From Rhodobiaceae bacterium (GTDB lineage: Bacteria > Pseudomonadota > Alphaproteobacteria > Rhizobiales > NORP267), in the NCBI GenBank assembly GCA_020441905.1, contig JAGRLG010000029.1:16922-80921 (forward strand): a DNA stretch of 64,000 nucleotides, read 5' to 3'. The position numbers were made by a program, and so were the translations under genes. The stretch's first letter is position 1. The number at the start of each line of letters is the position of its first letter. The notes beneath the pieces were generated by a model. That model did not search any database. It worked only from the letters and a program-made list of their open reading frames with translations, and had not been told where the DNA came from. Below are positions 6,933-42,715 of the stretch, in pieces.

Positions 6933-7009
6933 GCCAGCCTTCAGCCAGCCTTCAGCCAGCCTTCAGCCAGCCCTCAGCCCGCTCCTAGCCAGCCTTCAGC
7001 CAGCCCCGG
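6933..7009. repeat. 11-bp tandem repeat (GCCAGCCTTCA)
   Basis: Four consecutive units at 6933-6976 (the last reads GCCAGCCCTCA). After an 11-nt gap there are two more units at 6988-7009, which cover the ynfA stop codon. Confidence 0.8.
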
Positions 7010-7328: not shown

Positions 7329-7389
7329 CTCTCCCGCCTCCCTGCCCAGACAACGCAAATCGGTGCGGCGGCGCGCGACCAGGCCACGT

Positions 7390-8319: not shown

Positions 8320-9064
8320 TTCGCCCCTTCCCGCCGGCTTTGCCCCGGCGCCTCATGAAAATATGTCTCAACCTCAATCGCGGGACTCCGCGTGGCGGCG
8401 GTGGCCGCGAGCCTGCCCCGGCAGCGGCGCCCGGTCACCGGTCATCGAGTCGCCAGTCATCGAGTCGCCGTTCATTATGCCACAATTGCGGCCGCGCCGC
8501 GCCAGAGCCGCGCTGCGCCGCGGTAGATGCCGCGACAATGCCCGGAAACCGCAATACTGGTGAAACCCGTCAGGCAGGGAGCAAAATGCAAGAGGGCGGC
8601 AGGCCCAAACAACGCGGGGGCCGCGCCCAGCGCGGCCCCCATACGCTTCCGGCCTTGGACGTGCCCCGTCAACCGGCCTGTTAAACTCGCTGCCCGCAGG
8701 CCGCCGCCGGCGGCGGCCGCCATCCCCACACCTGGGAGCACCGCGGGACCTAGCGGAAAGTCTTCTACTTCCTTGTCACTTGGGAATTGATCCATATCAA
8801 TTTTTGGATAATACGCACCCCCCTGACACTGCCGCGCACCTGGCGGAACAGTGCCAAAAGGCGCTGCGCCAAAGCGGACCAGGAAAAGGGAAACAAAAAA
8901 GCGGCGGAGCGCTGGTGATATTCAAAAATGTGGCAACTGGACGCACCCGCTGCGCAGTTGACCTAAGGATACTGGCGGTCGATGCCCATATTGTGGCATA
9001 CCTGTACCGGCGGTAATAAAAAAAAGCGCATGCCCGAGGGGGGCGGCAAAGGCCGGAGATACTT

Positions 9065-16225: not shown

Positions 16226-16233
<8 letters not shown>
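14875..16233 (-). CDS. Alpha-oxoamine synthase (PLP-dependent acyl-(ACP/CoA) : amino acid C-acyltransferase, SPT/BioF/KBL family)
   Basis: 452 aa from ATG 16233. 'VDEAHSIGVLGGTGRGIGE' and the PLP-lysine motif 'GTLSKALASCGGYIAG' are present. There is an N-terminal extension of about 90 aa with the helix 'LSAAQKRALLEEMLREK'. The start overlaps the PKS stop by 8 nt. Confidence 0.85.
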
Positions 16234-23995
<7,762 letters not shown>

Positions 23996-26333: not shown

Positions 26334-26405
26334 TATGTCGGGCGGCGTCTAGACCCGATGGCCGCGCTAAGCGCAGTCACCCTTGGTGAGTGGGGCACCC
26401 AGATC

Positions 26406-27020
26406 ATGGCCGACCTAGCCGGGCCGGAAACCTTGCGCAACCTCTACCGCCGCCTTCTCGACTCGGCGTCGCGCACCCTTGCCGCCGCCGGCATCCACCC
26501 CGACTGGCTGACCATGGCCTCGCTGCCACCGGCGGTCCTTGCCGGCATCGCCGCCGCCTTCGGCTCGTTCACGATCGCCGCCGTCCTGTTCGCCATCAGC
26601 GGCATCCTCGACCTGCTCGACGGCGCGCTGGCCCGCCACACCGGCCGCGCCACCCGTTTCGGCGCGCTGCTCGATTCAACTCTCGACCGCCTTGCCGATG
26701 CTGCCGTGCCCGCCGGCCTCGTCGTCTTTTATGCGCCGCATGGTGCGCTGGCCGCCCTTCCCGTGCTGACCATCATCGCCGGCTTCCTGATTTCCTATAT
26801 CCGCGCCCGCGCCGAAGGCCTCGACATCGCCCTGCCCCGGCTGTGGATGCGCCGCGAGGACCGTTTCCTGGCGATGACCGCCGGCTTGCTTCTGGCCCCG
26901 CTCGCCGCACCGGCCCTCGGCGTTCCGGCGCCCGTGCTGCTCGCGGTGATGGCCGCCCTTGCCGGACTGGGGTTTGTCGCCGCCTTCCAGGCCCTGCGCG
27001 CCGCGGCGAAGCGCAGCTGA
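26406..27020 (+). CDS. CDP-alcohol phosphatidyltransferase (candidate phosphatidylinositol-phosphate synthase)
   Basis: Signature D-x2-D-G-x2-A-R-x8-G-x3-D-x3-D is readable as 'DLLDGALARHTGRATRFGALLDSTLDRLAD'. About 204 aa with multiple TM helices. An alternative ATG lies at 26358. MIPS and PgpA are its neighbours. Confidence 0.8.
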   Translation: MADLAGPETLRNLYRRLLDSASRTLAAAGIHPDWLTMASLPPAVLAGIAAAFGSFTIAAVLFAISGILDLLDGALARHTGRATRFGALLDSTLDRLADAAVPAGLVVFYAPHGALAALPVLTIIAGFLISYIRARAEGLDIALPRLWMRREDRFLAMTAGLLLAPLAAPALGVPAPVLLAVMAALAGLGFVAAFQALRAAAKRS

Positions 27021-27029
27021 GCGCGGCAG

Positions 27030-27557
27030 CTAGAAAGCCAGCGCCGCTAGATGCAGCGCGGCTATGGCATAGAGCGCCGCCAGGCCGTCATCCAGCATGA
27101 CGCCAAGGCCGCCGCCGACCCTGCGGTCGGCCAGCGAAACCGGCCATGGCTTGAGAATATCGAAGGCGCGAAAGAAGACGAAGGCCAGCGCCGATGCGCC
27201 AAGGCCCGGCAGGGCCGGCGGCGCCAGCACCACCACCAGCGCCATGCCGAAGATCTCGTCGATGACAATGGCGCCGTGGTCATGCACCCCCAGCGCCGCG
27301 CCGGCGCGCGACGCCGCCGCCACGCCGATGGCAAAGACCAGTGCCAGGGCGGGCAATGCCGCGGCCAGCGGCAATTGCGCCAGCGCCAGACCGAGCGCGA
27401 GGCCCGGCAGCGAACCGGCCGTTCCCGGCGCCAGCGGGCTGAGGCCGGTGCCGAGGCCGAGAGCGAGGAAATGCCACGGGCTGTCGATGAGGAAGCGCCA
27501 GCCGGGGCGCGCGCCCAAGATGGCTGCCTTTTCAGCGGGCGGGGAAACGGGTTTCAC
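27030..27557 (-). CDS. pgpA: Phosphatidylglycerophosphatase A family protein (candidate PIP phosphatase)
   Basis: 175 aa. 'WHFLALGLGTGLSPLAPGTAGSL' and 'IVIDEIFGM', 'FRAFDILKPWP' are the PgpA signatures. The GTG start lies 6 nt after the MIPS stop. Confidence 0.8.
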   Translation of the reverse strand: MKPVSPPAEKAAILGARPGWRFLIDSPWHFLALGLGTGLSPLAPGTAGSLPGLALGLALAQLPLAAALPALALVFAIGVAAASRAGAALGVHDHGAIVIDEIFGMALVVVLAPPALPGLGASALAFVFFRAFDILKPWPVSLADRRVGGGLGVMLDDGLAALYAIAALHLAALAF

Positions 27558-27563: not shown

Positions 27564-28646
27564 TCAATGGGTCACGAGGTCGTCGACGAATTCGCGGGTG
27601 CGCCGCTGCGCCTCGTGGTCGTCATACTGCACCGGCGGCGACTTCATGAAATAGCTCGACGGGCCTTCGAGGGCGCCGCCGATGCCGCGGTCGAGCGCCA
27701 GCCGCGCGCAACGGATGGCATCGATCACCACGCCGGCGGAATTGGGCGAGTCCCAGACCTCCAGCTTCATCTCCAGGTTGATCTGCGAGCCGCCGAATCC
27801 GGTGCCTTCGAGGCGGATCTGCGCCCATTTGCGGTCCTCCAGCCAGGGCACGTAGTCGCTGGGGCCGACATGGATGTTTCTTTCCTCGAGCGGAAAATCG
27901 ACCTGGCTGGTCACCGCCCGCGTCTTGGAGATCTTCTTCGACTTCAGGCGGTCGCGCTCCAGCATGTTGTGGAAATCCGAATTGCCGCCGAAATTGAGCT
28001 GGTAGGTGCGGTCGAGGCGGATGCCGCGCTGGCCCAGCAGCTGCGCCAGCACCCGATGCACAATGGTGGCGCCGACCTGGCTCTTGATGTCGTCGCCGAT
28101 GATCGGCAGGCCCGTCGCGGCAAAGCGCCCGGCCCAGGCCGGATCGGAGGCGATGAACACCGGAATGCAGTTGACCACGGCGCAGCCGGCCTTGAGCGCC
28201 TCCTCGACATAGAAGCGGGTCGCCGCTTCCGAGCCGACGGGCAGGTAGTTGATCAGGATCTCGGTGCCGGTGGCCTTGAGCACGTCGGTGACATCCACCG
28301 GCGGCGCCTCGGATTCCGGCACCATGTCCTTGAGATATTCGCCGATGCCATCCAGCGTCGGCCCTCGCAGCACCTTGACGCCGGTCTTTTCCACCTCGGC
28401 GAAGCTGCATGTATTGTTGGGGTCGGCGAAAATGGCCTCGGCGAGGTCGCGATCGACTTTGCCGGCATTGACATCGAAAGCCGAGCAGATCTCGACATCG
28501 CGCACGTGATAGCCGCCGAGCGAGACGTTCATCAGCCCCGGCGGCGGCGTATTGGCGTCGGCCTGGTCGTAGAACTTTATGCCCTGAACCAGCGACGAGG
28601 CGCAGTTTCCGACACCAACAATGCCAACTCGAATCTTGTCCGTCAC
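27564..28646 (-). CDS. ino1: myo-Inositol-1-phosphate synthase (inositol-3-phosphate synthase)
   Basis: '[22 protein letters not shown]', 'LPVGSE', '[11 protein letters not shown]', '[12 protein letters not shown]' and 'SKKISKT' match the bacterial/archaeal MIPS family of about 360 aa. I chose GTG 28646 (GGGGG SD 6 nt upstream); the track ORF starts at TTG 28664. Confidence 0.9.
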
Positions 28647-28825: not shown

Positions 28826-29884
28826 ATGCGCGCGCCCGCACCGATGCCCGATTGCCCTCGCCCGCCCGCCGCGCGCGCGCGCGCCGATGCCGGATGGCGC
28901 CGCGTTCCGCTGCGCCGGCTTCTCCTCGTCCTTGTCGCCATGGCCATCATTGCCGCCCTGCCCTTCGTGGACTGGGCAGGGCTGGGTATGGCGCTCGCCG
29001 CCGCCGATCCCTATTGGCTGGCCATGGCCGTCATTGCCAATCTTGCCGTTTTCCCGCTCTGGGTCTGGCAATGGCGGCTCCTGGCGCTGCCGGGGCGTGA
29101 CGTCGGCTGGCCGGTCATGGCCGAGATTGTCGCCCTGACGGCTGCCGCCAAGACCACCCTGTCCTCGATCGGCGGCGGCGCCTCGGCGGTGGCCCTACTG
29201 GTGGCGCGCGGCGAACTGACACTGATCGGCGCCACCTCATTGCTCGCCATGGACCAGCTTCTGGTCGGCATTGCCAAGCTGGCCGTCCTCGCCCTGGCGC
29301 TCTCCATTGCCCCGCTCCCCGCCCCCGTCTTCACCGCGGCGCTGGTCTTCGCCGCGCTGGTGGCCGCGTTGCTGGCCGCCCTCACCGTCCTTGCCTTCGG
29401 CCCGGCGCGGCTCGCCGGCATTGTGGCGCGCCGGCGCAGGCTTGGCGCCTGGCTTGGCAACATGCTGGGTCATGTTTCCGTCGGGCTTGCCACCATGCGC
29501 AGTCCGCAACGCGCCGCCCTGACCCTGGCGCTCGCGCTGGTCAAAAAATTCACCGAGGTCGCCGCCGCCCTTGCCATCCAGCTTGCCTGCGGCATCGCGC
29601 CTTCGCCCGCCGCCGCCATCCTGTCGGTGGCCGCCGTGAGCCTGACGACGGCGATACCGGTCATTCCCGGCAATATCGGCACCTATGCCGCCACCGTGTT
29701 TCTGGTCTACGAAGGCCTCGGCATCCCCGCCGCGCCGGCGCTGGCCGCCGGCCTGCTTCAGCACGGCGCCATGCTCATCCCCTCGCTCGCCATCGGCTAT
29801 GGCGCCGTGGCATTGTCGCGCCTTGGCGCAGGCGGCGCGGCGGCCGGCGAGGCGGCGCAAGAAACGGAGCAGGATCCGGCATGA
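28826..29884 (+). CDS. UPF0104 / lysyl-PG-synthase-TM-region family membrane protein (flippase-like)
   Basis: About 352 aa and polytopic. N-terminus 'RRLLLVLVAMAIIAALPFVDW..L..AL...DP.WLA.AV..NL' with 8 or more hydrophobic helices, typical of the MprF flippase-domain family. Its stop overlaps the lptB-like start (ATGA). Confidence 0.6.
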   Translation: MRAPAPMPDCPRPPAARARADAGWRRVPLRRLLLVLVAMAIIAALPFVDWAGLGMALAAADPYWLAMAVIANLAVFPLWVWQWRLLALPGRDVGWPVMAEIVALTAAAKTTLSSIGGGASAVALLVARGELTLIGATSLLAMDQLLVGIAKLAVLALALSIAPLPAPVFTAALVFAALVAALLAALTVLAFGPARLAGIVARRRRLGAWLGNMLGHVSVGLATMRSPQRAALTLALALVKKFTEVAAALAIQLACGIAPSPAAAILSVAAVSLTTAIPVIPGNIGTYAATVFLVYEGLGIPAAPALAAGLLQHGAMLIPSLAIGYGAVALSRLGAGGAAAGEAAQETEQDPA

Positions 29885-30663
29885 CCGCATCAGGGGCACC
29901 AGACGCGAAAATGCTCCAGGCCTCGGGCCTGGCCAAGGCCTATGGCGGCGGCGATGTCGTGGTCGATTTCAGCCTTCGCGTCGCGCGCGGCGAAACCGTC
30001 GCCCTGCTTGGCCCCAACGGCGCCGGCAAGACCACCGTTTTCAGCATGATAACCGGCGTCACGCGCCCCGATGCCGGCGCGGTGCGCATCGACGGCATCG
30101 ATGTCACCAAGATGCCGGTCTATGCCCGCGCCCGCCTCGGCCTCAGCTATCTGCCGCAGGAAACCTCGGTTTTCCGCGGCCTGTCGGTGGAGGACAATAT
30201 CCTGCTCTATCTCGAAAGCATCGAGCCGGATCGCCGCCGCCGCGCCCGCCGCCTGGAAGAACTGCTGGCCGAGGTCGGCCTCGCCGACATGCGCCGCCAG
30301 AGGGCCTCGCGCCTGTCCGGCGGCCAGCGGCGGCGCTGCGAAATCGCCCGCGCCCTCGCCGCCGACCCGCGCTACATCCTGCTTGACGAGCCTTTCGCCG
30401 GCATCGACCCTCTAGCCGTGAGCCACGTCCAGGCCACCATCCGCGACCTCAGCGCGCGCGGCCTCGGCGTTCTTGTCAGCGATCACAATGTGCGCGAGAC
30501 GCTGGCCATCGTCGACCGCGCCTATGTCATCGAATCGGGATACCTGCTGGCCCATGGCACGCCGGGCGAGATCATCGGCGACGAACAGGTGCGCCGCCTC
30601 TATCTCGGCAGCACCTTCGCCGCGCCGCCTTCGGGGGCCGCGCCGCCCGGCCCCACGGCCTGA
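29881..30663 (+). CDS. lptB: LptB-family ABC ATPase (paralog embedded in the lipid island)
   Basis: 'LLGPNGAGKTT.F.MI.G', 'LGLSYLPQE.S.FR.LSVEDN', 'LSGGQRRRCEIARALA..P.YILLDEPFAGIDP' and 'DHNVRETL' are LptB hallmarks. 260 aa. Confidence 0.8.
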   Translation: MTASGAPDAKMLQASGLAKAYGGGDVVVDFSLRVARGETVALLGPNGAGKTTVFSMITGVTRPDAGAVRIDGIDVTKMPVYARARLGLSYLPQETSVFRGLSVEDNILLYLESIEPDRRRRARRLEELLAEVGLADMRRQRASRLSGGQRRRCEIARALAADPRYILLDEPFAGIDPLAVSHVQATIRDLSARGLGVLVSDHNVRETLAIVDRAYVIESGYLLAHGTPGEIIGDEQVRRLYLGSTFAAPPSGAAPPGPTA

Positions 30664-30781
30664 ACGCGGTCCCGACGGGAACGAAACAGGGGAAACAGCC
30701 ATCGCCTCCTTCCAGACACTGCATGCCGGCGCGGCGCGCCGTCACCCTCCCGCCGGCATCCCGCGGCGGCCGGGGCGTGCC

Positions 30782-31945
30782 GTGCCGGGGCGCTATGTCG
30801 GCGGCCTCATCCGCGACATCGCCCGCATCACGCTTGGTGTCCTGGCCGGCATCGAGGCGATCTATCTTTCCGACAAGGTGATCACCCACCTCCTGCCGAC
30901 CACCCTCCAGAACCAGGCCGGATTTGCCGATCTGGCGCTGCTGGTGCTCTACGCGACGCCGGAAATCCTATTCATCGGCTTTCCGGTGGCGCTGCTGATC
31001 GCGGTCTATCTGGTTCTGCTGCGCCGCCGCGAGGCCAATGAGTTCGTCGTCTTCGCCGGTGTCGGCTACGGCACCGGCGCGCTGCTCGCCCTGGTCCTGG
31101 TCATCGGCCTCGCCGGCCAGGCGCTTTCCCTGGCTGCCACCGGCTATATCGAACCCCACGCCCTGCACCTGTTCGGCAAGACGGCGTTCGAAACCCGCTA
31201 CAAGGCGCTGCGTGAAGGCCGCCTCGCCGCCGGCAAGTTCTATGTCTTCGACAAATATGCCGTCTTCGCCCCCTATCGGCGCGGCAATGACGTGGTCGAC
31301 AACCTGTTCATCCATGCCCGCCTCGACGCCAACCGCTACCGCATCATGATCGCGGACCGCGCCACCTTGTTCGGCTCGCCGGAAATCCGCAATCTGGGGC
31401 TGATATTCGAGAATGCGTCGGTCCATGAATTCCACGAGAACCGCACCCTGGACCCCGGCCCAGCCGAATGTCAGAAATGCCGCAACGCCCGTCCGGCGGC
31501 CCCCTTCAACGTTCTCAGGATCAATCACCTCTACGGCGAGCTGCCCGCCGGCGACGGGCAGGAATTCGGCCCGCGCGGCCAGCGCCCGGCGGAACTGACC
31601 AGCCTCGAACTGCTGACCGGGCAAGACACCGGCGGCGGCGCCACGCGGGAAATGTCGGCTCGCGCCGTGCGCGCCCTCACCTGCCTGCTGGCGCCCCTTA
31701 TCGCCCTGCTGGCAGTGGCGCTGACCAGCCAGGCCACCATGTTCATTGCCCTGCCCGCCGCCTGCGCGCTGATCCTCGGCACCGGATTTTTCGGCGGCCA
31801 GGCCGCCGGCCTGCTGCCCCCCGCCGGCATGGCGGCCAATCTTGGCGCGGTGCTGGTGCTGGGGCTTGCCGCCGCCGCGGCCCTCATTTGGGCCGTGCTG
31901 CGCGTCCAGAACGGCTGCGTGCGCCCGCACGGGGTGCGGCTATGA
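30782..31945 (+). CDS. lptF: LptF-like (YjgP/YjgQ family) permease
   Basis: The in-frame GTG at 30782 gives 'MPGRYVGGLIRDIARITLGVLAG...', the family-typical N-terminal RY motif. This is followed by 3 TM helices, a periplasmic domain of about 170 aa and 3 C-terminal TM helices. Its stop overlaps the next start (ATGA). Confidence 0.7.
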   Translation: MPGRYVGGLIRDIARITLGVLAGIEAIYLSDKVITHLLPTTLQNQAGFADLALLVLYATPEILFIGFPVALLIAVYLVLLRRREANEFVVFAGVGYGTGALLALVLVIGLAGQALSLAATGYIEPHALHLFGKTAFETRYKALREGRLAAGKFYVFDKYAVFAPYRRGNDVVDNLFIHARLDANRYRIMIADRATLFGSPEIRNLGLIFENASVHEFHENRTLDPGPAECQKCRNARPAAPFNVLRINHLYGELPAGDGQEFGPRGQRPAELTSLELLTGQDTGGGATREMSARAVRALTCLLAPLIALLAVALTSQATMFIALPAACALILGTGFFGGQAAGLLPPAGMAANLGAVLVLGLAAAAALIWAVLRVQNGCVRPHGVRL

Positions 31946-33120
31946 CCGCGCCGCTGGCCCCGTTCGGCCGCGAGACCCGCTATGTTTCCCGGCTCTATCT
32001 GCAAAGGGTCTTCGTCGTCGCCGCCGCGACCATGGCGATCGTGCTCGCGCTCGACCTTGCCTCGAACATGACCTGGTTGTTGTCGGACCGCGCCGCAGCA
32101 TCGGGGCGGGACGGCTTTGCGCGCCTAGCCTATTATCTCGGCCTGCGCGCCGCCTACAACACGCCGGCCATCCTGCCCATCGCCGCCGTGGTCGGTGTCG
32201 TCTGGGCGGAGTTCGCCCTTGCCGCTTCCTACGAGCGCCTCATGATCTTCAATTCCGGGCGCTCGCCCCTGCGCTCGCTGGTTCCGGCGATCCTGGTCGG
32301 CCTCCTGCTCGGCTCGGCCCAGTTCGCCGCGCTGAGCTATGCCCAGCCCTTTGCCGTGGCGGCGCAGGCGCGATCCAATTTCCGCGATTACGGCCCGAGC
32401 TTCCACCCCGACAGCGTCACCGGGCGCAAATGGATCGCCATCGAGGACGCGCTGGTCAACGCCCGCATCGAATTCGGGCATCCGGTGACCCTGCGCGACA
32501 TGATCGTCTATGGCCTCGACCGCGACGGCCAACTCGAAATCGTCGTCAGCGCCGAACGAGCCGTTCCCGCCGCCGAACCCGGCATGTGGGCGCTTAGCTC
32601 TGGCTCATGGTGGGGCCGCCCCGCCTCGCCGGCACAGGGCGGCGCCGGCGCCGGCGGTGGCGCCGAGGCCGCTTTTGAAAACGCGGAGATCAAGCTGCCG
32701 CTGGATCCGCTCTGGGTCGCCAATTACGAGGTGCCGGCCCGATTCCTGCCGCAGAAGGTCATCCGCGCGCTGGGTTCCGGCGGCCCCGGAATTCCCGAGG
32801 CGTTCAGCTATCGCACCACCTATCAGACGCGGCTGGCCTCGCTGCTCTACCCCCTCGCCATGACCCTCCTCGGCGCCACCTTGTGCCTGCTCATGCTCGG
32901 CCCCAGGGTGCGGCCGATGGTATCGGTGAAGATCGGCCTCGCTGGCTATGGCGTGCACGTCGCTTCCAAGGTTCTGACCACCCTTGGCGAATATGGCTAT
33001 GTCACGCCCGTCGTGGCGGCCTGGGCGCTGCCGGTCGCCGTCGCCGGCGGCGCGCTGCTGGTGCTGGCCCGCCGCGAGCGCAAGGTTCGCCGCTCGCTCG
33101 CCCGCCAGGCGGCAGGCTAG
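31942..33120 (+). CDS. lptG: LptG-like (YjgP/YjgQ family) permease
   Basis: 'RYVSRLYLQRVFVVAAATMAIVLALDL', with the same 3 TM / periplasmic domain / 3 TM topology as its partner. 392 aa. Confidence 0.75.
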   Translation: MTAPLAPFGRETRYVSRLYLQRVFVVAAATMAIVLALDLASNMTWLLSDRAAASGRDGFARLAYYLGLRAAYNTPAILPIAAVVGVVWAEFALAASYERLMIFNSGRSPLRSLVPAILVGLLLGSAQFAALSYAQPFAVAAQARSNFRDYGPSFHPDSVTGRKWIAIEDALVNARIEFGHPVTLRDMIVYGLDRDGQLEIVVSAERAVPAAEPGMWALSSGSWWGRPASPAQGGAGAGGGAEAAFENAEIKLPLDPLWVANYEVPARFLPQKVIRALGSGGPGIPEAFSYRTTYQTRLASLLYPLAMTLLGATLCLLMLGPRVRPMVSVKIGLAGYGVHVASKVLTTLGEYGYVTPVVAAWALPVAVAGGALLVLARRERKVRRSLARQAAG

Positions 33121-33524
33121 AATTCTGCCGTCAGCTCTATTTCCGCCTCGCCCATCACCACGGTCTTGCCGGCGGCGGCCGCGGTCAGCCGCACCACCGC
33201 CCGGCGGGACGCCGGATCGGCCGCGACCACCCGCCCCGAAATCTCCACGCCCTCGCCGAAAAGGACCGGGCGCAGGAAGCGCGCCGCCAGGCGGGCGATG
33301 GCGCCGCAGCGCGGCCAGGCCTCCAGCGCGCGGGAAAACTGCCCCATCACCAGCATGCCGGGAACCGGCAGGCCGGCCATGCCGGCGCCGCGCGCCAGGG
33401 TTTCGTCGCGGTGCAGCGGATTGTCGTCGCCCGAGGCCGCCAGATAGGCGCCGACCGCATCGGCGCCGATGGCTTCGATGGCAAGCCCCGGCAGGCGCTG
33501 GCCGATCAGTTCCTGGCGGCTCAT
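33117..33524 (-). CDS. MaoC-like (R)-specific hydratase/dehydratase, catalytic hot-dog subunit (HadB-like)
   Basis: 135 aa. Hydratase-2 motif 'YLAASGDDNPLHRDETLA' ([YF]-x-x-[STG]-G-D-x-N-P-[LIV]-H). The start overlaps the upstream stop by 4 nt. Confidence 0.75.
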   Translation of the reverse strand: MSRQELIGQRLPGLAIEAIGADAVGAYLAASGDDNPLHRDETLARGAGMAGLPVPGMLVMGQFSRALEAWPRCGAIARLAARFLRPVLFGEGVEISGRVVAADPASRRAVVRLTAAAAGKTVVMGEAEIELTAEF

Positions 33525-33943
33525 GGGCGCGGCTCCTTGCCGCCGGCGAGAACGAAGCTGCCGCACACGCTGGCGACCCTGGCCCCGGCGCCATCGCGCA
33601 GATCGGCCCTCACCCGCGCCACCCCCCTGGCATCCGGCCCGGCAAGGCCGACATCCATGGCATAGGGCTGGCCGATGCGCAGGGGCGCGAAATATTCCAT
33701 TTCCTGGTCGAGATGCACCGGCACCTTGCCGCCGCCGCCCAGCGCCACCAGCAGCGCCGATTTGACCGCCGGCTCCGCCAGCCAGCAGATCGGAAAGGTG
33801 ACCGGCACTTCGCCCCGGCCAGCGCCGCCAGCCCCGCCCAATGCCAGCGCGGCGCGAAAGCGGGCCACCCGCTCCGCCCCGGCCACGACATCGAAACTGC
33901 CGATGCGGCGAAATCCTGGCGCGGGCGCGGCGGGCGTCGCCAT
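33521..33943 (-). CDS. Hot-dog fold protein without hydratase motif (MaoC N-terminal-like, HadA/HadC-like partner)
   Basis: 140 aa from ATG 33943 ('MATPAAPAPGFRRIGSFDVV...'). It has no D-x-N-P-x-H motif. It sits directly between the KAS gene and the catalytic hot-dog gene. Confidence 0.55.
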   Translation of the reverse strand: MATPAAPAPGFRRIGSFDVVAGAERVARFRAALALGGAGGAGRGEVPVTFPICWLAEPAVKSALLVALGGGGKVPVHLDQEMEYFAPLRIGQPYAMDVGLAGPDARGVARVRADLRDGAGARVASVCGSFVLAGGKEPRP

Positions 33944-33948
33944 GCCCG

Positions 33949-35157
33949 TCACTCCGGCCGGGACACGATCAGCGCGGCATTGATGCCGCCAAAGGCGAAG
34001 GAATTGGACAGCGCGGCTTCGAAGCGGTGGGCCTGCGGACCCGCGGTCGGCAGGTTGAGCGGGCATTTGGCGTCCGGCGCCTTGAAATTGATGTGTGCGG
34101 GCACGACCTGGGCCTCCAGGGCGCGAACCGTGATCGCCAGTTCCAGCGCCCCGGCGGCGCCAAGGGTATGGCCGATGACCGGCTTGGAGGACGACACCGG
34201 CAGCTCGCCCACCCCCTCGCCGAAAACCTGGCGCAGGGCGGCCGCCTCGTTGATATCGTTGAGCACGGTGCCGGTGCCGTGGGCATTGACATAGCCGATC
34301 GCGGCGGGCGCGAGGCCGGCATCGGCCAGCGCCGCGCTCATGGCGTTGGCGGCGCCGTCCACGTCGGGCTGGATGATGTCGCGGGCATCGCTGGTGGTGC
34401 CGTAGCCGGCCAGCCGCGCCAGCACCTTGGCGCCGCGCGCCAGCGCCAGATCCTCGGCCTCGAGGACGAAAACCCCCGCCCCCTCGCCGATGACGATGCC
34501 GGTGCGCCCGGCGGAAAAGGGCCGGCAGACATCGGGCGAAAGCACCCGCATCATTTCCCAGGCGCGCAGGGTCGCCGCCGTGATGCAGGCCTCGCTGCCG
34601 CCGACGACGGCGCGGTCGATGGCGCCCGAGCGGATCAGCATGGCGGCGATACCGATCGACTGGCTGGCCGAGGAACAGGCGCTGGTAACGGAAAAACAGG
34701 GGCCGGTGATGCGGTGGGTGATGCTGATATGGGAGGTCGCGGCGCTCGGGATCAGCTTGGGCACGCTCAGCGGATCGACCCGTTTCACGCCGCTGTAGAA
34801 ATCGAAGCAGCCGTCGTCAAGCGTATTCATGCCGCCGATGCCGGTGCCGATGATGGCCGCCGTCCGCGGCCCGGCGATCTCGTCCGCGCCCAGGCCCGAT
34901 TGCGCAATGGCCTCGGCGGCGGCGACATGGGCAAACTGGGTAAAGCGGTCGCAGCGCCGCATGACATCGGCCGGCGCGTGGGAGGCGGGATCGAAATCCT
35001 TCACGCTCGCCGCTACCCGCACGCGCAGGCTTTGCCCGCGCGTGATGTCCAGCGGCCCGACCGCCGACACCCCGTCGCGCGCCGCCAGCCACAGGGCATC
35101 GACCCCGATGCCGGCGGCGCTGATGGCGCCCATGCCTGTAATGGCGACCTTTCTCAT
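33949..35157 (-). CDS. Beta-ketoacyl-ACP synthase I/II family (FabF/FabB-like)
   Basis: 402 aa. Cys-His-His triad context: 'SACSSASQSIG', 'NAHGTGTVLND', 'SSKPVIGHTLGAAGALE'. A GAGGA SD is present. Confidence 0.9.
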   Translation of the reverse strand: MRKVAITGMGAISAAGIGVDALWLAARDGVSAVGPLDITRGQSLRVRVAASVKDFDPASHAPADVMRRCDRFTQFAHVAAAEAIAQSGLGADEIAGPRTAAIIGTGIGGMNTLDDGCFDFYSGVKRVDPLSVPKLIPSAATSHISITHRITGPCFSVTSACSSASQSIGIAAMLIRSGAIDRAVVGGSEACITAATLRAWEMMRVLSPDVCRPFSAGRTGIVIGEGAGVFVLEAEDLALARGAKVLARLAGYGTTSDARDIIQPDVDGAANAMSAALADAGLAPAAIGYVNAHGTGTVLNDINEAAALRQVFGEGVGELPVSSSKPVIGHTLGAAGALELAITVRALEAQVVPAHINFKAPDAKCPLNLPTAGPQAHRFEAALSNSFAFGGINAALIVSRPE

Positions 35158-35170
35158 CGGGAGGATGTCC

Positions 35171-35491
35171 TCACCCGCCCGACGTCGGCGCCGCCGGCTC
35201 GCTCTGCATCGAGGCGACGATGACGCTGATCAACTCGGACAGGTTGCGCGCCTCGGAAAGATCGGAACTCATGGGAATGTAGGTGTCGAATTCCTCTTCC
35301 AGGCCCATCAGCACCATCACGACCTCGATCGATTCAAGGCCCAGCGTTTGCAGCGTCGCCTCGGGCGCGATCTTGTCCCGCTCGACCTTTCCCTCTTCGA
35401 CGATCACCTTGATGATCCGCTCGATCATGTCCGGATCGTCGAGTTGCGGCCATGTCGTCGGCGCCGGGCCGCGTGTGTCCTCATCCGTCAT
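35171..35491 (-). CDS. Dedicated acyl carrier protein
   Basis: 106 aa from ATG 35491 (GGGAG SD). Phosphopantetheine site 'LQTLGLESIEVVMVLMGLEEEF'. It is longer than AcpP, with N- and C-terminal extensions. Confidence 0.8.
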   Translation of the reverse strand: MTDEDTRGPAPTTWPQLDDPDMIERIIKVIVEEGKVERDKIAPEATLQTLGLESIEVVMVLMGLEEEFDTYIPMSSDLSEARNLSELISVIVASMQSEPAAPTSGG

Positions 35492-36671
35492 TGTCGTCTC
35501 CCTCGCCTGCCGCGGCATCAGCTTCCAGCACCTTGTCATAGAGGCGCAGGGTGCGCACGCGCTTGAAGTTGAATTGCTCCAGTATTTTCAGCAATGCCTG
35601 ATTGTTTTCCAGCACCCAGCCCGCTTCCAGCCAGTCGGTTTCATAGTGGGCGCTGCGGGCGATCATCTCGTCGATCATGGTCATGGCGATGGCGGCGCCG
35701 CCGACGCTGTGGCGCAGGTCGAAAACCACGCCGAGCAGGATGATGCGCCCGGTGCGGAACCTGTGGGTGAACATGCGATAGCCGAGCTTGAGCCAGCCCA
35801 GCGGCGAGGGATCGGCGCCAAGATCGCCGGTGGCCTCGAACAGGTTGGGCAGCACCAAGGCGACGCCGACCGGGCGGCCCGCCATTTCGACGATGACACC
35901 GGCATCGGCGGGAACGAAGGGCTTCAGGTCCTTCGAAATGCCCTCCAGATCCTCTTTTTGCAGCGGCACGAAGCCCCAGTTGTCCTGCCAGGCGTCGTTA
36001 TAGACCGCGCGCATGATTTCGACGTCGCGGGCCAGGTTCTTCAGATCGAGCGCGCGCACGACCAGGTCGGGGCGCCGGCGCTGCAGCGCCAGGCGGACGC
36101 GCCGCGCTTCCAGCTCTGCCTGGGCGCTGTCGAGGCGCCAGTAATGCAGGTCGCGCATCTTGGCATAGCCGCAGGCCTCGACATGGCCCTCCAGATAGGC
36201 CGGGTGCCAGGGCACCATGATCAGCGCCGGTTCCTCGCGCCCTTCGACCAGCAGGCCCGCCTCCTCGTTCATCGACAGCAGGCAGGGTCCGAAAACGCGG
36301 CCGAAGCCGCGATCGGCGATCCAGTCCTCGGCGGTTTCGATCAGCGCCCGCACCACCTCCAGCTCGTCAATGGCATCGAGGCAGCCGAACATGCCGGCGC
36401 CCTCCAGGGCGTCGCCGGGGCCGCTGGCGCGGATCTGGGCGTGGTCGATCTGCGCCGAAATGCGCCCCACCGCGGCGCCATCCTTGCGGGCGATCCAGTA
36501 TTGCGCCTCGCCATGCTTGAAGAACGGCGCCTTGGCGGGATCGAGCAGGCCCCGGCGCTCCATGGTCATCGGCGCGGTGTAGCCGGCAAGGCCGCGGTAG
36601 AGCCGGGGCGGCAGGGCGATGAACTCCTTCACCGCCGCCTTGCTGTCGGCGCGTTCGATGGTCACCCTCAT
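35481..36671 (-). CDS. Large GNAT-fold acyltransferase (~396 aa; candidate N-acyltransferase)
   Basis: The in-frame ATG at 36671 overlaps the PAP2 stop (ATGA). 'MRVTIERADSKAAVKEFIALPPRLY...' has a two-lobed GNAT-like organisation, with the acyl-CoA/ACP-binding-type segment 'RIILLGVVFDLRHSVGGAAIAMTMIDEMI'. The track ORF 35481..37544 is an in-frame fusion artefact with the antisense of the PAP2 gene. Confidence 0.55.
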   Translation of the reverse strand: MRVTIERADSKAAVKEFIALPPRLYRGLAGYTAPMTMERRGLLDPAKAPFFKHGEAQYWIARKDGAAVGRISAQIDHAQIRASGPGDALEGAGMFGCLDAIDELEVVRALIETAEDWIADRGFGRVFGPCLLSMNEEAGLLVEGREEPALIMVPWHPAYLEGHVEACGYAKMRDLHYWRLDSAQAELEARRVRLALQRRRPDLVVRALDLKNLARDVEIMRAVYNDAWQDNWGFVPLQKEDLEGISKDLKPFVPADAGVIVEMAGRPVGVALVLPNLFEATGDLGADPSPLGWLKLGYRMFTHRFRTGRIILLGVVFDLRHSVGGAAIAMTMIDEMIARSAHYETDWLEAGWVLENNQALLKILEQFNFKRVRTLRLYDKVLEADAAAGEGDDNDG

Positions 36672-37573
36672 GCCGTCACCGCCTTTGTGAGCCGGCGCGC
36701 CCGCAGCCGCGCCAGAACGAAATCGACCGCCAGCACGATGGCAATTCCGAGCAGCCCGTCGACCAGCCAGTGATGGTCGAGATAGACGCTGGCGGCGAGC
36801 ATCCACAGCACATAGGCAAGCAGCAGCGCCCTTATGCCCCAATTGGTGCCGCGCCACGCCGTCACCAGCATGGCGGTGGGAAAGGCCAGATGCAGCGACG
36901 GCAGGGCGCCGAAGACATTGGGGGAGCGCGAATAGAAGTCGTGGAAATAGCTGATTGCGAGCTGGGCATCGACCCGCGCCAGCGCCGCCGCGTCGGGCAG
37001 CGCATTGATGTCGATGGCGCAGCCGTGGCTTCGCACATACCAGGGCGGCGCCGCCGGCAGCCACAGCCAGATGACGAAAGCGACGGCATGGCTTAGCGCC
37101 AGCACCCAGATGAAGCGGCTCGCCCGCGCCGGGTTGAGGAAATAGAGCGCCAGGCCATAGATGATGGCGACCATCCAGAACACCGTATAGGGCAGGGCGA
37201 AGACCAGGTCGGCGGCGGCGCTGTGGTGAAGCGTGAAATAGTCCGCCAGGGTGGTGTCGGGCCCCAGGCCGGCAAGGCGCAGTTCCACGGCGCGCAATTC
37301 GCAGCCCAGGACCCGTTCCGGGGTGACGAAGAAGGGCCGCAGGTAGCGGATCGCCTCGTAGCCGAGCCCGATGCCCACCCCCGGGAGGCAGGCGATCAGC
37401 AGGCCCTTCGTCTTTTCGGTGCCGGCGCCGAGGGCGACGATGATGGCGACGATGACGACATGCTCGACGCGCAGGTCGCCCAGCGCGGCAAAACCGGCGA
37501 TGAATGCCAGCGGCGCCAGCGGCAACAGCCAGAAATCGCCCCACAGGCCACGCAGATGGCGGACAACGAACAT
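36668..37573 (-). CDS. PAP2_3-type membrane protein (inositol-phosphorylceramide synthase / AUR1-like phosphotransferase)
   Basis: 301 aa, about 7 TM helices. PAP2 C2/C3-type motifs 'FGALPSLHLAFP' and 'SVYLDHHWLVDGLLG' occur in the arrangement I associate with the IPC-synthase-like PAP2 subfamily rather than soluble phosphatases. Confidence 0.6.
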   Translation of the reverse strand: MFVVRHLRGLWGDFWLLPLAPLAFIAGFAALGDLRVEHVVIVAIIVALGAGTEKTKGLLIACLPGVGIGLGYEAIRYLRPFFVTPERVLGCELRAVELRLAGLGPDTTLADYFTLHHSAAADLVFALPYTVFWMVAIIYGLALYFLNPARASRFIWVLALSHAVAFVIWLWLPAAPPWYVRSHGCAIDINALPDAAALARVDAQLAISYFHDFYSRSPNVFGALPSLHLAFPTAMLVTAWRGTNWGIRALLLAYVLWMLAASVYLDHHWLVDGLLGIAIVLAVDFVLARLRARRLTKAVTA

Positions 37574-37776: not shown

Positions 37777-38640
37777 ATGGCAACAGTGTCGGCAGCATCT
37801 GGCCGCGGCAAGAGCGGCGACCCGGCTTCGGGGAAGCCGCGCCACGTCCTGATAACCGGGGCCACCGGCGGCCTCGGGCAGGCTCTGGCCGCCCATTACG
37901 CCGCGCCCGGCCGCGTGCTGTCGCTGACCGGGCGCGACGCCGCGCGCCTGTCCGCGATCGCCGACACCTGCGCCGCGCGCGGCGCGCATGTCGTCTCCCG
38001 CGCCCTCGACATCACCGACGCCGAAGCCCTGGGCGGCTGGATCGTCGCCCGCGACGAGGAAGACCCCATCGACCTGCTGATCGCCAATGCCGGCATCGGC
38101 GGCGCGGCCGTGGTCCCGCCTCCGGGCGGCGAAAGCGGCGAATTGGCGCGCCGGATCCTCGCCGTCAACACCATCGGCGCCATCAACACCGTGACCCCGG
38201 CCCTGCCGCGCATGATCGCCCGCCGGCGCGGGCATATCGCCATCGTCGGCTCGATATCCGGATCCATCGGCATGGCCCAGTCGCCGGTCTATTGCGCCTC
38301 CAAGGGCGCGGTACAGATCTATGCCGACGGCCTGCGCCGCCTCGTCAGGCGCCACGGCCTGCGCGTCACCTGCGTGCTGCCGGGTTTCATCGACACGCCG
38401 ATGAGCCGCTCGCTCGACATGCCCCGCCCCTGGTGCTGGCCGGCGGAGCGGGCCGCCCGGCGCATCGCCGCCGACATCGCGCGCGGCGCCAGCAGGAGCA
38501 TCTTTCCCTGGCAGTTGCGCGCCGGCATAGGCCTTCAGAACTACCTGCCCGCGGCCCTCACCGACTTCATTCTGGAGATCGGCGCGCGCGGCGGCGGCTG
38601 GACCAATCCCGAACCGGACGAAGACGGCGGGACGGACTAG
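37777..38640 (+). CDS. Classical short-chain dehydrogenase/reductase (candidate 3-keto reductase)
   Basis: 'HVLITGATGGLGQALA' (TGxxxGxG), 'NAGIG' and the catalytic 'YCASKGAV' (YxxxK). It is transcribed divergently from the PAP2-GNAT-ACP-KAS operon. Confidence 0.85.
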   Translation: MATVSAASGRGKSGDPASGKPRHVLITGATGGLGQALAAHYAAPGRVLSLTGRDAARLSAIADTCAARGAHVVSRALDITDAEALGGWIVARDEEDPIDLLIANAGIGGAAVVPPPGGESGELARRILAVNTIGAINTVTPALPRMIARRRGHIAIVGSISGSIGMAQSPVYCASKGAVQIYADGLRRLVRRHGLRVTCVLPGFIDTPMSRSLDMPRPWCWPAERAARRIAADIARGASRSIFPWQLRAGIGLQNYLPAALTDFILEIGARGGGWTNPEPDEDGGTD

Positions 38641-38759: not shown

Positions 38760-38835
38760 CTAGTGTCCTTATTGAATCCGAAGTTCGTTCCGAGCCTGCC
38801 GCACAGTGCGACGAACTTCGGATTCAGGACACTAG
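38760..38835. repeat. Palindromic intergenic element, copy B (inverted orientation, diverged)
   Basis: CTAGTGTCCTTATTGAATCCGAAGTTCGT...loop...ACGAACTTCGGATTCAGGACACTAG. The loop contains GAGCCTGCCGCA, the reverse complement of the copy A loop core. The last 4 nt overlap the stop of the DUF4833-like gene. Confidence 0.8.
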
Positions 38836-39440
38836 CGTTGCGCCGGCCGGTCGCCGGGCGCCATGCCCGCCGCGCGCTGGTCGACGAACAGGCGCTCGCT
38901 GACGCGCTCATCCCCCTCCAGCGTGCGCCCGACAATGTCGATATGGCCGATCTCCGGGATATAGCTGTTCGTCAGCAGCTCGATATAGATGCAGTCGAGC
39001 ACCGCCGGCCGGCCGGAAATCTCCAGCAGCCCGCGCGCCTTGCCCGGCGCCACCGGCTCGACCTCGACCTCCAGCGCCGGATAGGAAACGAGATGGGCGC
39101 GGTAGCGGCCAGGCGCCCCCTTGAGCGGCGCATAGCGCGCGCCAAAGGCGAAGGTGCGCTCGAAGAACCCCAATTCCTTGCGCTGCCCCTTTTCGGCATA
39201 GCGCCGCCAATAGACATCGACCGGATGCTGCGCATCGACCTTGCCCGTGCCGTCGAAATTGAGGGCGTAGATCACGGTATTGGCGTTGCTGGTGCGCTGC
39301 AGGTAGAAGACCTGGCCCGGCTCGTTCGGGGCCGGGTATCCGGGCTTTGCCGTGCAGGCCGACTGGGCCGCCCGCGCCGCCGGAACCTGGGCGGCAAGGG
39401 CCAGCATGAACGACAGCGCCAGCAACGCATTGAGCCGCAT
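38832..39440 (-). CDS. Secreted hypothetical protein (DUF4833-like by recollection)
   Basis: 202 aa from ATG 39440 (GGGAG SD). Signal peptide 'MRLNALLALSFMLALAAQVPAARAAQ'. 'VFYLQRTSNANTVIYALNFD' resembles the DUF4833 core as I remember it; this is unverified. Confidence 0.45.
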   Translation of the reverse strand: MRLNALLALSFMLALAAQVPAARAAQSACTAKPGYPAPNEPGQVFYLQRTSNANTVIYALNFDGTGKVDAQHPVDVYWRRYAEKGQRKELGFFERTFAFGARYAPLKGAPGRYRAHLVSYPALEVEVEPVAPGKARGLLEISGRPAVLDCIYIELLTNSYIPEIGHIDIVGRTLEGDERVSERLFVDQRAAGMAPGDRPAQR

Positions 39441-41302: not shown

Positions 41303-42715
41303 CTATTCGCTGGATGCCCGCATATAGACATCGTCAAAGCGCACGATGTCGTCCTCGCCCAGATAGCTGCCCGACTGGACCTCGACCAGATAGGCCGGTT
41401 CGCTGCCCGGATTGCCGAGGCGGTGGCGCGTGCCGGCGGCGATATAGGTCGACTGGTTGACGCCGAGCGCGAACACCTCCTCGCCCCGCGTCACCTCAAC
41501 GGTGCCGGCCACCACCACCCAGTGCTCGGAGCGGTGGCGGTGGCTTTGCAGCGACAGCTTTTCCCCCGGCTTGACCATCAGCGACTTGACCTGGAAGCGC
41601 TCGGCGCGGCTCAGCACCTCGTACCAGCCCCAGGGCCTGTAGACCCGGTCATGGGTGGTCGCCTCGGGGCGCTGCTGGGCACGCAGGTGATCGACCACGT
41701 GCTTGACCTGTTCGGCCTCCCGCGCGCTCGCCACCATCACCACGTCCTTGGTGGCGACGACCACCAGGCCCTCGACCCCGAGCACCGATACCAGCTGGCC
41801 CTCGCTGACCGCGAGGCAATTGCCCGAATTGTGAAAATGAACGTCGCCGAGGGCGCAATTGCCGGCCTCGTTCTTTTCCAGCACTTCCCAGATCGCCGCC
41901 CAGGAACCGAGGTCGCTCCAAGCGCCGTCGAATGGCACGCATTTGATATTGCCCGCCTTTTCCATGATCGCGTGATCGAGCGAGATATTGGCGCAGGCGG
42001 CATAGGCCACCTCTTCGAGGCGGATGAAGCCGAGATCGCGCCCGGCGCGCTCCAGCGCCGTGCGGCAACAGGCCACCATGTCCGGCGCAAGGGCCTCGAA
42101 GGCGCAAATCATCGCCGAGGCGGAAAACAGGAAGATGCCGGCATTCCAGAAGAAATGCCCGTGATCGAGAAACTCCTGCGCCCGCTCCGCCGACGGCTTT
42201 TCGACGAAGCGGACGACGTCGAGCACGCTCGTCCCCTCCAGTGTTTCGATATAGCCATAGCCGGTATGGGGGCTGGACGGGCGGATGCCGAAGGTCACCA
42301 GGGCGCCGGCCCGCGCCGCCTCGATGCCCCGTTCAACCGCGGCGCCGAAGGCCGCCGTGTCGGGGATATGATGATCGGATGGCAGCAGCAGGATCAGGCC
42401 GTCCTCGCCCTGCCGCGCCACCTGAAGCGCCGCCGTCAGCGCCGCCGGCGCGGTGTTGCGGCCCACCGGCTCGAGGATGATGTCGCTGCCCTCAACGCCG
42501 ATCTGGCGCAATTGCTCGGCGATGATGAAGCGGTGGTCGAAATTGCCGATCACGCACGGGCTGGCGAACAGCCGGGGCGACAGGCGCTCGCAGGTTTCCT
42601 GGAACAGGCTGACATCGCCGATCAGGTTGAGGAACTGCTTGGGCATCGACTTACGCGATACCGGCCACAGCCGCGTACCGGCCCCGCCGGACAGGATAAC
42701 CGGCCTGATCTTCAT
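41303..42715 (-). CDS. manC: Mannose-1-phosphate guanylyltransferase / mannose-6-phosphate isomerase (type II PMI-GMP)
   Basis: 470 aa. 'PVILSGGAGTRLWPVSR...PKQF' nucleotidyltransferase N-terminus and the cupin C-terminus 'SLQSHRHRSEHWVVVAGTVEV'. Confidence 0.9.
   Translation of the reverse strand: MKIRPVILSGGAGTRLWPVSRKSMPKQFLNLIGDVSLFQETCERLSPRLFASPCVIGNFDHRFIIAEQLRQIGVEGSDIILEPVGRNTAPAALTAALQVARQGEDGLILLLPSDHHIPDTAAFGAAVERGIEAARAGALVTFGIRPSSPHTGYGYIETLEGTSVLDVVRFVEKPSAERAQEFLDHGHFFWNAGIFLFSASAMICAFEALAPDMVACCRTALERAGRDLGFIRLEEVAYAACANISLDHAIMEKAGNIKCVPFDGAWSDLGSWAAIWEVLEKNEAGNCALGDVHFHNSGNCLAVSEGQLVSVLGVEGLVVVATKDVVMVASAREAEQVKHVVDHLRAQQRPEATTHDRVYRPWGWYEVLSRAERFQVKSLMVKPGEKLSLQSHRHRSEHWVVVAGTVEVTRGEEVFALGVNQSTYIAAGTRHRLGNPGSEPAYLVEVQSGSYLGEDDIVRFDDVYMRASSE

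Follow-up and report, generated by a model that had tools for sequence, protein, structure and literature searches.

A putative ceramide synthase gene coupled to an inositol-phosphoceramide synthase-like gene and an accessory fatty-acid cassette in a probable alphaproteobacterial sphingolipid island

We analyzed a 64,000-nucleotide stretch of DNA from a Rhodobiaceae bacterium (contig JAGRLG010000029.1; hereafter called the window), in which six minus-strand open reading frames (ORFs) fill positions 33117-37573 in the order PAP2_3, GNAT, acyl carrier protein (ACP), β-ketoacyl-ACP synthase (KAS), hot-dog A (HotA), and hot-dog B (HotB). Homology and genomic context show a ceramide-synthase-family enzyme and an inositol-phosphoceramide (IPC) synthase-like enzyme, predicted to be co-translated, within an island that is probably a bacterial sphingolipid locus with an inositol-phosphoceramide as its product. 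We tentatively read the operon as providing the ceramide-forming and head-group steps of a polyketide synthase (PKS)-type sphingolipid pathway, plus an accessory fatty-acid cassette (ACP-KAS-HotA-HotB) that would supply the amide-linked chain, and we rate this reading as a whole at slightly below an even chance. A preliminary description had seen the six genes as a private type II fatty-acid synthase (FAS-II) branch feeding an N-acyltransferase, but it missed the wider setting, since the operon is one piece of a sphingolipid island of ~32 kb. The genes of the operon are as follows.

36668-37573, minus strand, PAP2_3 membrane protein of 301 amino acids (aa), first gene of the operon
35481-36671, minus strand, GNAT-like protein, 396 aa
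35171-35491, minus strand, ACP, 106 aa
33949-35157, minus strand, KAS, 402 aa
33521-33943, minus strand, HotA, 140 aa
33117-33524, minus strand, HotB, 135 aa

As read from the sequence, the PAP2_3 and GNAT genes overlap at an ATGA, the GNAT and ACP genes overlap by 11 nt (ATGACGGATGA), and the HotA and HotB genes again share an ATGA, a 4-nt overlap. The KAS gene follows the ACP gene after a 13-nt gap, with a GAGGA running across the ACP stop codon, and the HotA gene follows the KAS gene after 5 nt, an alternative GTG start of HotA overlapping the KAS stop. Identical products (301/396/106/402/140/135 aa) were found in independent gene calls on four metagenome contigs. The six genes, their coordinates, and every type of junction given in the preliminary description were thus reproduced. 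A codon-usage model trained on the window returned the same frames, with later starts for ACP, KAS, and GNAT and an earlier GTG start for HotA. A scan for terminators inside the operon gave no signal above shuffle expectation, promoter and terminator scans being uninformative in such GC-rich DNA. The stop codons of HotB (minus strand) and of a convergent LptG-like gene (plus strand) overlap at 33117-33120, within a CTAG palindrome, which leaves no intergenic room for a terminator.

The GNAT-like protein matched no Pfam or NCBIfam model, and a profile search against PDB sequences found no match. It matches a hypothetical protein from a Rhodobiaceae metagenome-assembled genome (MAG) at 100% identity and belongs to a large family, most of whose members, of ~380 aa, lack annotation or bear the name "dATP pyrophosphohydrolase" or "GNAT." The preliminary description had proposed structure prediction for this "two-lobed GNAT," and an AlphaFold (AF2) model computed from 51 homologues (pLDDT 92, pTM 0.90) indeed adopts a tandem GNAT fold. 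Its top Foldseek matches in the PDB were all two-domain GNATs (E ~1e-12, TM 0.5-0.6) and included 2wpw (the clavulanate tandem GNAT), 7q3a, MAB_4324, MshD, N-myristoyltransferase, Eis, and FemX. A FemX-type aminoacyl-tRNA transferase was considered and rejected.

A Citrobacter relative of the protein pointed, via DNA similarity, to yghO of Escherichia coli. The window GNAT and E. coli YghO are 34% identical over 380 aa, i.e., over their full length (E = 1e-73). In E. coli strain PAR (locus L088, 3350-11119), yghO lies in an lptF-lptG-spt-acp-epimerase-fatty acyl-AMP ligase-yghO array adjoining glcC; the spt gene of this strain is annotated as a truncated pseudogene. The "aca" N-acyltransferase gene needed for dihydroceramide synthesis corresponds to CC_1154, yghO (ECD_02850), Swit_3908, and Neut_1100 (PMC9386255, Fig. 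9 legend), and CC_1154, which is CCNA_01212, is bCerS, the bacterial ceramide synthase of Caulobacter (PMC11324152, PMC9393093). In Caulobacter, bcerS adjoins lptG2/lptF2 (bioRxiv 10.64898/2026.04.12.717747). The comparison with Caulobacter bCerS that had been suggested beforehand therefore places the window GNAT in the CC_1154/YghO/bCerS family as a putative ceramide synthase, the tie to CC_1154 going through the YghO alignment and the grouping in PMC9386255.

Relatives of the GNAT were found by a reference-genome scan in Alpha-, Beta-, and Gammaproteobacteria, Myxococcota, Actinomycetota, and others, and local tblastn located a homologue of the α-oxoamine synthases (AONS; Spt) within 10 kb of the GNAT homologue in 38 of 80 genome loci. 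The window shows the same linkage, with an AONS, a short-chain dehydrogenase/reductase (SDR), and LptF/G, and so do close homologues: SDR, LptF/G, and a PKS-AONS pair lie beside the GNAT gene in L005, L007, L089, and L090. When a second homology search was seeded from a homologue in a Euryhalocaulis MAG, a probable relative of Caulobacter, the top 120 matches listed contained no Caulobacter protein and only "dATP pyrophosphohydrolase" and "GNAT" annotations; a literature search for "dATP pyrophosphohydrolase" with "ceramide" returned nothing.

Loci with GNAT homologues of at least 43% identity were grouped by their gene content.

PKS and AONS, without the cassette: L005, L089, and L090
Cassette, with no PKS within 10 kb: L006 (Roseibium sp. 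M-1), L008 (a Devosiaceae MAG), L009 (Labrys), L091 (on a contig carrying a protein NCBI-named Hoeflea sp.), L092 (Devosia sp. CAU 1758), and L094
Both PKS and cassette: the window, L007, and L093 (Pararhodospirillum oryzae)
SDR and GNAT alone, with neither PKS nor cassette: L010, which has an AONS too, and L011 (both Acetobacteraceae MAGs)

Locus L011 covers only ~1.2 kb upstream of the GNAT gene, so an AONS is possible there. L009 has none within 10 kb. Of the cassette, L007 and L093 showed the ACP and KAS alone. The full six-gene order, with overlapping junctions, recurs in Devosia, both in the cultured strain (L092, 833-4943) and in L008, where the five genes with tblastn matches show 45 to 63% aa identity to those of the window and the positional HotA orthologue 43%. 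This conservation is more than chance. GNAT-ACP-KAS-HotA-HotB is also found in L006, L091, L009, and L094, and altogether ACP-KAS(-HotA-HotB) lies downstream of the GNAT gene on the same strand, across overlapping or very short junctions, in the window, L006, L007, L008, L009, L091, L092, and L094. Locus L090 (Rhodobiaceae MAG GCA_020637895.1, 7544-21134) has the island order of the window, but there the convergent Lpt genes come right after PAP2_3-GNAT. The cassette is missing from an otherwise syntenic locus, which makes it an accessory insertion or deletion. The six-gene operon is hence real, as first described, but it consists of a core of two genes, PAP2_3 and bCerS, to which an optional cassette of four is added.

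The PAP2_3 membrane protein matched Pfam PF14378 (69 bits) and, over residues 31-284, the NCBIfam model NF052609 "phosphoinositol dihydroceramide synthase" (E = 6.5e-37), with a score of 127.6 bits against an equivalog cut-off of 480 bits, which makes it a homologue and not an equivalog. Its PSLH (C2) and LDHHWLVDG (C3) motifs, which hold the catalytic His and His/Asp residues of PAP2 (His228, His267/268, Asp272), are invariant in four PAP2_3 orthologues. The protein is AUR1-like and homologous to the phospho-inositol dihydroceramide synthase of Bacteroides, and it may be a head-group transferase. Genes for the supply of phosphatidylinositol, encoding inositol-3-phosphate synthase (MIPS), a PIP-synthase-like enzyme, and a PgpA-like phosphatase, co-occur with PAP2_3 in the window, L008, L090, and L092. 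In the window these genes, annotated from Pfam and NCBIfam, are found together with an LPG-synthase-like gene.

26358-27020, plus strand, PIP-synthase-like CDP-alcohol phosphatidyltransferase
27030-27557, minus strand, PgpA-like phosphatase
27564-28646, minus strand, MIPS
28844-29884, plus strand, LPG_synthase_TM protein

The remaining four genes make up the cassette. The ACP matched PF00550 (31 bits), while all NCBIfam ACP models stayed below cut-off. It has an N-terminal extension of ~20 aa and carries its serine within GLESIEVV; this serine is kept in six orthologues, where the preceding residue is E, A, P, Q, or K and not the canonical D. The GLESI context of the serine is common to E. coli AcpR, but over ~55 aa the ACP is 41% identical to both E. 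coli AcpR and AcpP, a comparison that does not discriminate between them. The KAS matched both the N- and C-terminal ketoacyl-synt domains of Pfam and scored 395 bits on TIGR03150 (fabF), short of the 493-bit cut-off. Among solved structures, FabF of Thermus thermophilus is the best match (1j3n, E = 6e-89), and Cys161, His293, Lys326, and His331 are conserved across six orthologues. We predict that the KAS is a FabF-type elongating β-ketoacyl-ACP synthase.

HotB matched PF01575 (MaoC_dehydratas; 38 bits), the C-terminal half of the fused HadA/HadB model NF040620 (57 bits), and the HadB model NF010246 (44.7 bits, below the cut-off of 203). Its PDB matches were 5i7n/4v12 and the HadB structures 5zy8_B/4rlj_B, the latter at E = 1e-10. 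The motif SGDDNPLH is conserved as SGDDNP[LVI]H, with its Asp and His, across six orthologues, and HotB is predicted to be a MaoC/HadB-like (3R)-hydroxyacyl-thioester dehydratase and the catalytic subunit of the pair. For HotA, Pfam gave no significant family match (PF13452 at E = 0.0066), a search of 5.8 billion proteins returned the self match alone, and a profile search against the PDB found nothing. PF13452 (FAS1_DH_region) is, we assume, the Pfam family that holds HadA. Positional HotA orthologues in five loci are 19 to 43% identical and have a TFP..W motif in common; three of six HotA orthologues matched PF13452 weakly (best E = 0.0016), and others weakly matched further hot-dog families. 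With hhalign, HotA residues 77-124 aligned in register, although weakly (E = 0.02), to HotB residues 76-123; a single-sequence AF2 model of HotA was too poor for use (pLDDT 44.5). The HotA/HotB overlap of 4 nt is kept in the window, L006, L091, L092, and L094, which fits a stoichiometric heterodimer. It is a reasonable inference that HotA is a fast-evolving, motif-less, HadA-like non-catalytic hot-dog partner of HotB. The gene identities first proposed (PAP2, two-lobed GNAT, atypical ACP, elongating Cys-His-His KAS, and split HadB-like dehydratase) all agree with these domain and motif scans.

The operon is surrounded by the following genes of the island.

10132-11418, plus strand, GT4 glycosyltransferase
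11421-14861, minus strand, two Wzt and one Wzm, the Wzt ATPases with Wzt_C carbohydrate-binding domains
14875-16233, minus strand, AONS of the Spt/BioF family, overlapping the PKS gene by 8 nt
16226-23935, minus strand, type I PKS of 2569 aa with the domains KS-AT-DH-MT-ER-KR-ACP (Pfam)
24120-25331, minus strand, GT4 glycosyltransferase
25362-26222, minus strand, unannotated 286-aa ORF, conserved beside the GT4 and CDP-alcohol transferase genes (304 aa in L090)
29911-33120, plus strand, LptB, LptF, and LptG paralogs (PF03739 twice, ABC_tran), convergent with the operon
37786-38640, plus strand, SDR (PF00106 and generic NCBIfam SDR matches), divergent from the operon
38832-39440, minus strand, DUF4833 protein, kept beside the SDR in L005 and L090
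39622-41064, plus strand, GMC oxidoreductase
41303-42715, minus strand, ManC

The AONS stays below the cut-offs of the NCBIfam Spt and BioF models. In its architecture the PKS-AONS pair matches an SgaA/SgaB-type long-chain-base module, and the same pair lies beside GNAT homologues in L005, L007, and L089. The C-methyltransferase domain of the PKS suggests a methyl-branched, PKS-made long-chain base. The SDR adjoins the GNAT gene in loci with and without the cassette (L005, L006, L008, L089, L090, L091, and L092). Because it is retained where the cassette is missing (L005, L089, and L090), it is more likely a 3-ketosphinganine reductase, and thus an SgaC-like candidate, than a ketoreductase of the cassette.

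LptB (29911-30663, plus strand) scored 318 bits on TIGR04406 against a cut-off of 240 and precedes LptF/G at 30782-33120. LptF2/G2 is the proposed sphingolipid exporter of Caulobacter (PMC11324152; bioRxiv 10.64898/2026.04.12.717747), where no lptB duplicate was found within the sphingolipid locus or at any other chromosomal site (bioRxiv 10.64898/2026.04.12.717747). We regard the LptB/F/G of the window as a putative sphingolipid exporter. Similar ABC ATPase genes were seen in L006, L008, L090, L091, and L092. The flanking Wzm/Wzt, GT4, and ManC genes may serve glycosylation of the sphingolipid or a separate glycan export; Wzm/Wzt genes also adjoin the GNAT gene in L006, L009, L091, and L094. 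The literature searched made no mention of DUF4833. The Devosia locus L092 has the inositol genes, no PKS within 10 kb, and a nearby 958-aa AMP-binding-PCP-thioesterase protein together with a P450. Roseibium-type islands (L006, L091, and L094; ~5500-8800) add, beside the SDR and GNAT, an FA_hydroxylase and a Lipid_DES/FA_desaturase that is similar to sphingolipid Δ4-desaturases.

The pathway that we propose on the basis of homology and context would start with the iterative PKS and the coupled AONS, encoded 17 kb away, which would make a long 3-keto amino-alcohol to be reduced by the divergent SDR. The tandem GNAT of the bCerS/YghO family would then N-acylate this long-chain base to a ceramide, and PAP2_3 would move phospho-inositol onto it, yielding inositol-phosphoceramide. 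The donor would be phosphatidylinositol made by the neighboring MIPS, PIP-synthase-like, and PgpA-like enzymes. The GT4 enzymes and ManC may glycosylate the lipid, and the LptB/F/G of the island would take it to the outer membrane. Meanwhile, the ACP, the FabF-like KAS, and the HadAB-like dehydratase would elongate an acyl chain on a private ACP, borrowing housekeeping FabG/FabI, and we propose that the ceramide synthase receives the resulting acyl-ACP as the source of the amide-linked chain. These components would be kept in step by translational coupling.

We favor supply of the amide-linked chain because, in eight loci, the cassette adjoins the GNAT gene, runs in its direction, and is linked to it by translational coupling. 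The KAS triad and the catalytic motif of HotB are intact. In addition, the PKS of the window and of L007 has an ACP domain of its own and is coupled to the AONS, so that a discrete ACP is not needed on that side. Precedent also argues for it: in the NodF/NodE system with NodA, and in the AcpXL system with LpxXL, a private ACP and KAS make a special chain for one acyltransferase. A private FAS-II branch passing acyl-ACP to the N-acyltransferase, as originally suggested, is plausible on these grounds. We are more doubtful of its strongest form, in which the cassette would be an unrecognized sphingolipid FAS-II branch and the direct acyl-ACP donor of a bCerS-family enzyme, with inositol-phosphoceramide as product and export by a private LptB2FG. 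No enoyl reductase is encoded in the cassette, so a 3-hydroxy or 2-enoyl donor chain is possible; in this strongest form the chain might be very long and 3-hydroxy or 2-enoyl, and the long-chain base might be PKS-made and possibly methyl-branched.

Several observations weigh against our reading. The cassette is absent from L090, L005, and L089 although the GNAT is kept, and it is thus not required for N-acylation as such. Six loci with the cassette have no PKS within 10 kb and no fatty acyl-AMP ligase beside the AONS, which fits equally well a cassette that loads an AcpR-like ACP for the AONS. In L015 and L020, the cassette and the SDR form an operon of their own, separate from an AONS-GNAT pair. 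We know of no acyl-ACP-dependent ceramide synthase, and bCerS has reportedly been assayed in vitro with acyl-CoA. The label that CC_1154/yghO carries in PMC9386255 is "acyl-CoA N-acyltransferase." PAP2_3 lies so far below the equivalog cut-off that its head group could differ from inositol phosphate, and the matches that back a hot-dog fold for HotA are all weak. Finally, the ties to CC_1154, PfSgaA/B/C, and BT_1522 are indirect and go through YghO, gene architecture, and the NF052609 model, respectively.

In the main rival reading, the cassette would instead work on the long-chain-base side and provide an AcpR-like ACP carrying a chain built by the KAS and the HadAB-like dehydratase with housekeeping FabG/FabI, in place of AasR, the acyl-ACP synthetase found at canonical loci; this we deem possible but unlikely. 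The AONS would then condense the cassette acyl-ACP with serine, and the ceramide synthase would use ordinary acyl-CoA, a division of labor that we likewise find possible although not probable. Proteobacterial Spt prefers a dedicated acyl-AcpR, and AcpR serves Spt in Caulobacter (PMC9386255); the GLESI context that the window ACP shares with E. coli AcpR, the acyl-CoA label on CC_1154/yghO in that same paper, and the cassette-only loci L006, L008, L009, L091, L092, and L094 all point the same way, these loci having no fatty acyl-AMP ligase gene next to the AONS wherever one is present (all but L009). The PKS-only islands L005, L089, and L090, which lack the cassette, suggest that PKS and cassette are partly alternative chain suppliers. 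Nevertheless, the cassette coexists with an AONS-coupled PKS in the window and L007, and PKS and ACP-KAS lie within 10 kb of each other in L093, so one does not exclude the other, and the PKS comes with an ACP of its own. Moreover, it is with the GNAT gene that the cassette is contiguous and co-directional, whereas the AONS gene is on the other strand behind LptF/G or, in the window, 17 kb off; the ACP is no closer to AcpR than to AcpP; and loci were scored as cassette-only within 10 kb, so that a PKS farther off is possible.

It is improbable, in our view, that the GNAT acylates a head-group amine, such as that of a glucosamine-inositol made by a GT4 enzyme and a deacetylase, with the cassette acyl-ACP as donor, in the manner of MshD in mycothiol synthesis or NodA in Nod-factor synthesis. 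The structural matches include MshD, MIPS and GT4 genes are present in the island, to which L005, L089, and L092 add a polysaccharide deacetylase, and NodFE with NodA would be an analogous precedent. But the GNAT is homologous along its whole length to YghO/CC_1154, for which genetics shows a requirement in ceramide formation (PMC9386255, PMC11324152), the minimal locus L010 has AONS, SDR, and GNAT with no inositol or glycosyltransferase genes nearby, and no other ceramide synthase candidate is found among the annotated genes of the island. Least credible of all are orthology of the operon to the rhizobial acpXL cluster for very-long-chain fatty acids of lipid A and a GNAT acting as an OlsB-type N-acyl amino acid synthase (NAS) or as a small-molecule acetyltransferase with no relation to sphingolipids. 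The likeness here is one of superficial architecture alone, a special ACP, a KAS, and a dehydratase beside an acyltransferase. No Lip_A_acyltrans/LpxXL-type domain was found in the 26 annotated proteins between 10 and 45 kb, the dehydratase is of the split MaoC type and not FabZ, there is one KAS and not two, and the ACP scores just 21.5 bits on NF005079, a 93-position ACP model that presumably represents the AcpXL type. The lipid A cluster, named beforehand as an outcome that would overturn the idea of an N-acyltransferase branch, thus fails on all these counts. An OlsB/NAS identity was rejected because PF13444 was not matched (E <= 0.01), and that of a small-molecule acetyltransferase was rejected as well: no acetyltransferase Pfam family matched, and the linkage of the GNAT family to AONS/Spt genes across phyla contradicts the alternative, raised in the preliminary description, that the protein acetylates a small molecule unrelated to lipids.

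Bacterial sphingolipid synthesis has been elucidated since ~2021 through Spt/AcpR/AasR, bCerS/CerR, the SgaAB PKS route, the Bacteroides inositol cluster, and LptF2/G2. The island unites these modules in one locus and adds a private ACP, KAS, and split dehydratase, all of them coupled with the putative ceramide synthase. In the literature searched, we found no description of an ACP-KAS-split-dehydratase cassette attached to a bCerS gene, of an IPC-synthase homologue co-transcribed with bCerS in Alphaproteobacteria, or of a sphingolipid locus with its own LptB. If the cassette does supply the amide-linked chain, the idea of the bCerS acyl donor would be revised, and a tailoring of ceramide chains independent of bulk fatty-acid synthesis would be explained; if, furthermore, it is the direct donor, the GNAT would be the first acyl-ACP-dependent ceramide synthase. 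The proposed pathway, if true, would amount to eukaryote-like IPC made from wholly bacterial parts in Alphaproteobacteria. The island leads us to expect inositol-phosphoceramides beyond Bacteroidetes, as well as a sphingolipid exporter equipped with an LptB of its own, and since there are cultured carriers (Devosia sp. CAU 1758 and Roseibium sp. M-1), these predictions are directly testable.

Within the literature searched, every module of the island has a published relative, while the combination does not. The inositol-lipid cluster BT_1521-1526 of Bacteroides encodes MIPS, PIP synthase, a PgpA-like phosphatase, an LPG-synthase-like protein, and an AUR1-like PAP2 (PMC9246714). All functional classes of this Bacteroides thetaiotaomicron cluster (BT_1521-BT_1526) are represented in the window island. 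However, the host of the window is an alphaproteobacterium, the inositol genes are split around the Lpt transporter, and PAP2_3 would be co-transcribed with the ceramide synthase gene instead of the phosphatidylinositol genes. In Pseudomonas fluorescens MYb115, SgaA/SgaB/SgaC makes free C24-C28 sphinganines and phosphoglycerol derivatives (PMC12134224). As in SgaABC, a single-module, fully reducing type I PKS is coupled to an AONS with an SDR nearby, a likeness of architecture; the related locus L005 has the order SDR-GNAT-LptG-LptF-AONS-PKS. Unlike the window, the published cluster has no N-acyltransferase named in it, nor an ACP/KAS/dehydratase cassette, nor inositol genes (PMC12134224), and the window PKS differs in carrying a C-methyltransferase domain.

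The GNAT is like bCerS/YghO in its length (~380 to 396 aa), its full-length homology, and its tandem GNAT fold, and its gene likewise neighbors lptF2/lptG2-type paralogs, with an Spt-family enzyme and a reductase encoded nearby. Its sub-clade (at least 43% identity) is, in contrast, tied to an SgaAB-type PKS/AONS and not to spt-acpR-aasR-cerR, and in the window the gene is translationally coupled to PAP2_3 upstream and to the ACP-KAS-dehydratase cassette downstream, a cassette that descriptions of the Caulobacter locus in the literature searched do not name and that is not annotated at the E. coli yghO locus. The hot-dog pair recalls mycobacterial HadAB in that the catalytic MaoC-type gene stands behind the predicted non-catalytic one and overlaps it by 4 nt, and in that HotB can be aligned with HadB and retains the Asp/His motif. 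It differs in the score of HotB, which at 44.7 bits falls far short of the HadB cut-off of 203, in a HotA without significant similarity to HadA, and in a setting without HadC and without a mycolic-acid context. Compared with the NodA and LpxXL systems, the acyltransferase of the window is a tandem GNAT, its dehydratase is a split MaoC type as opposed to FabZ, and the acceptor lipid would be a different one. What the window would share with NodFE-NodA and AcpXL-LpxXL, by analogy, is their logic: no enoyl reductase is encoded, housekeeping enzymes are borrowed, and the AcpXL system, like the window, includes a dehydratase.

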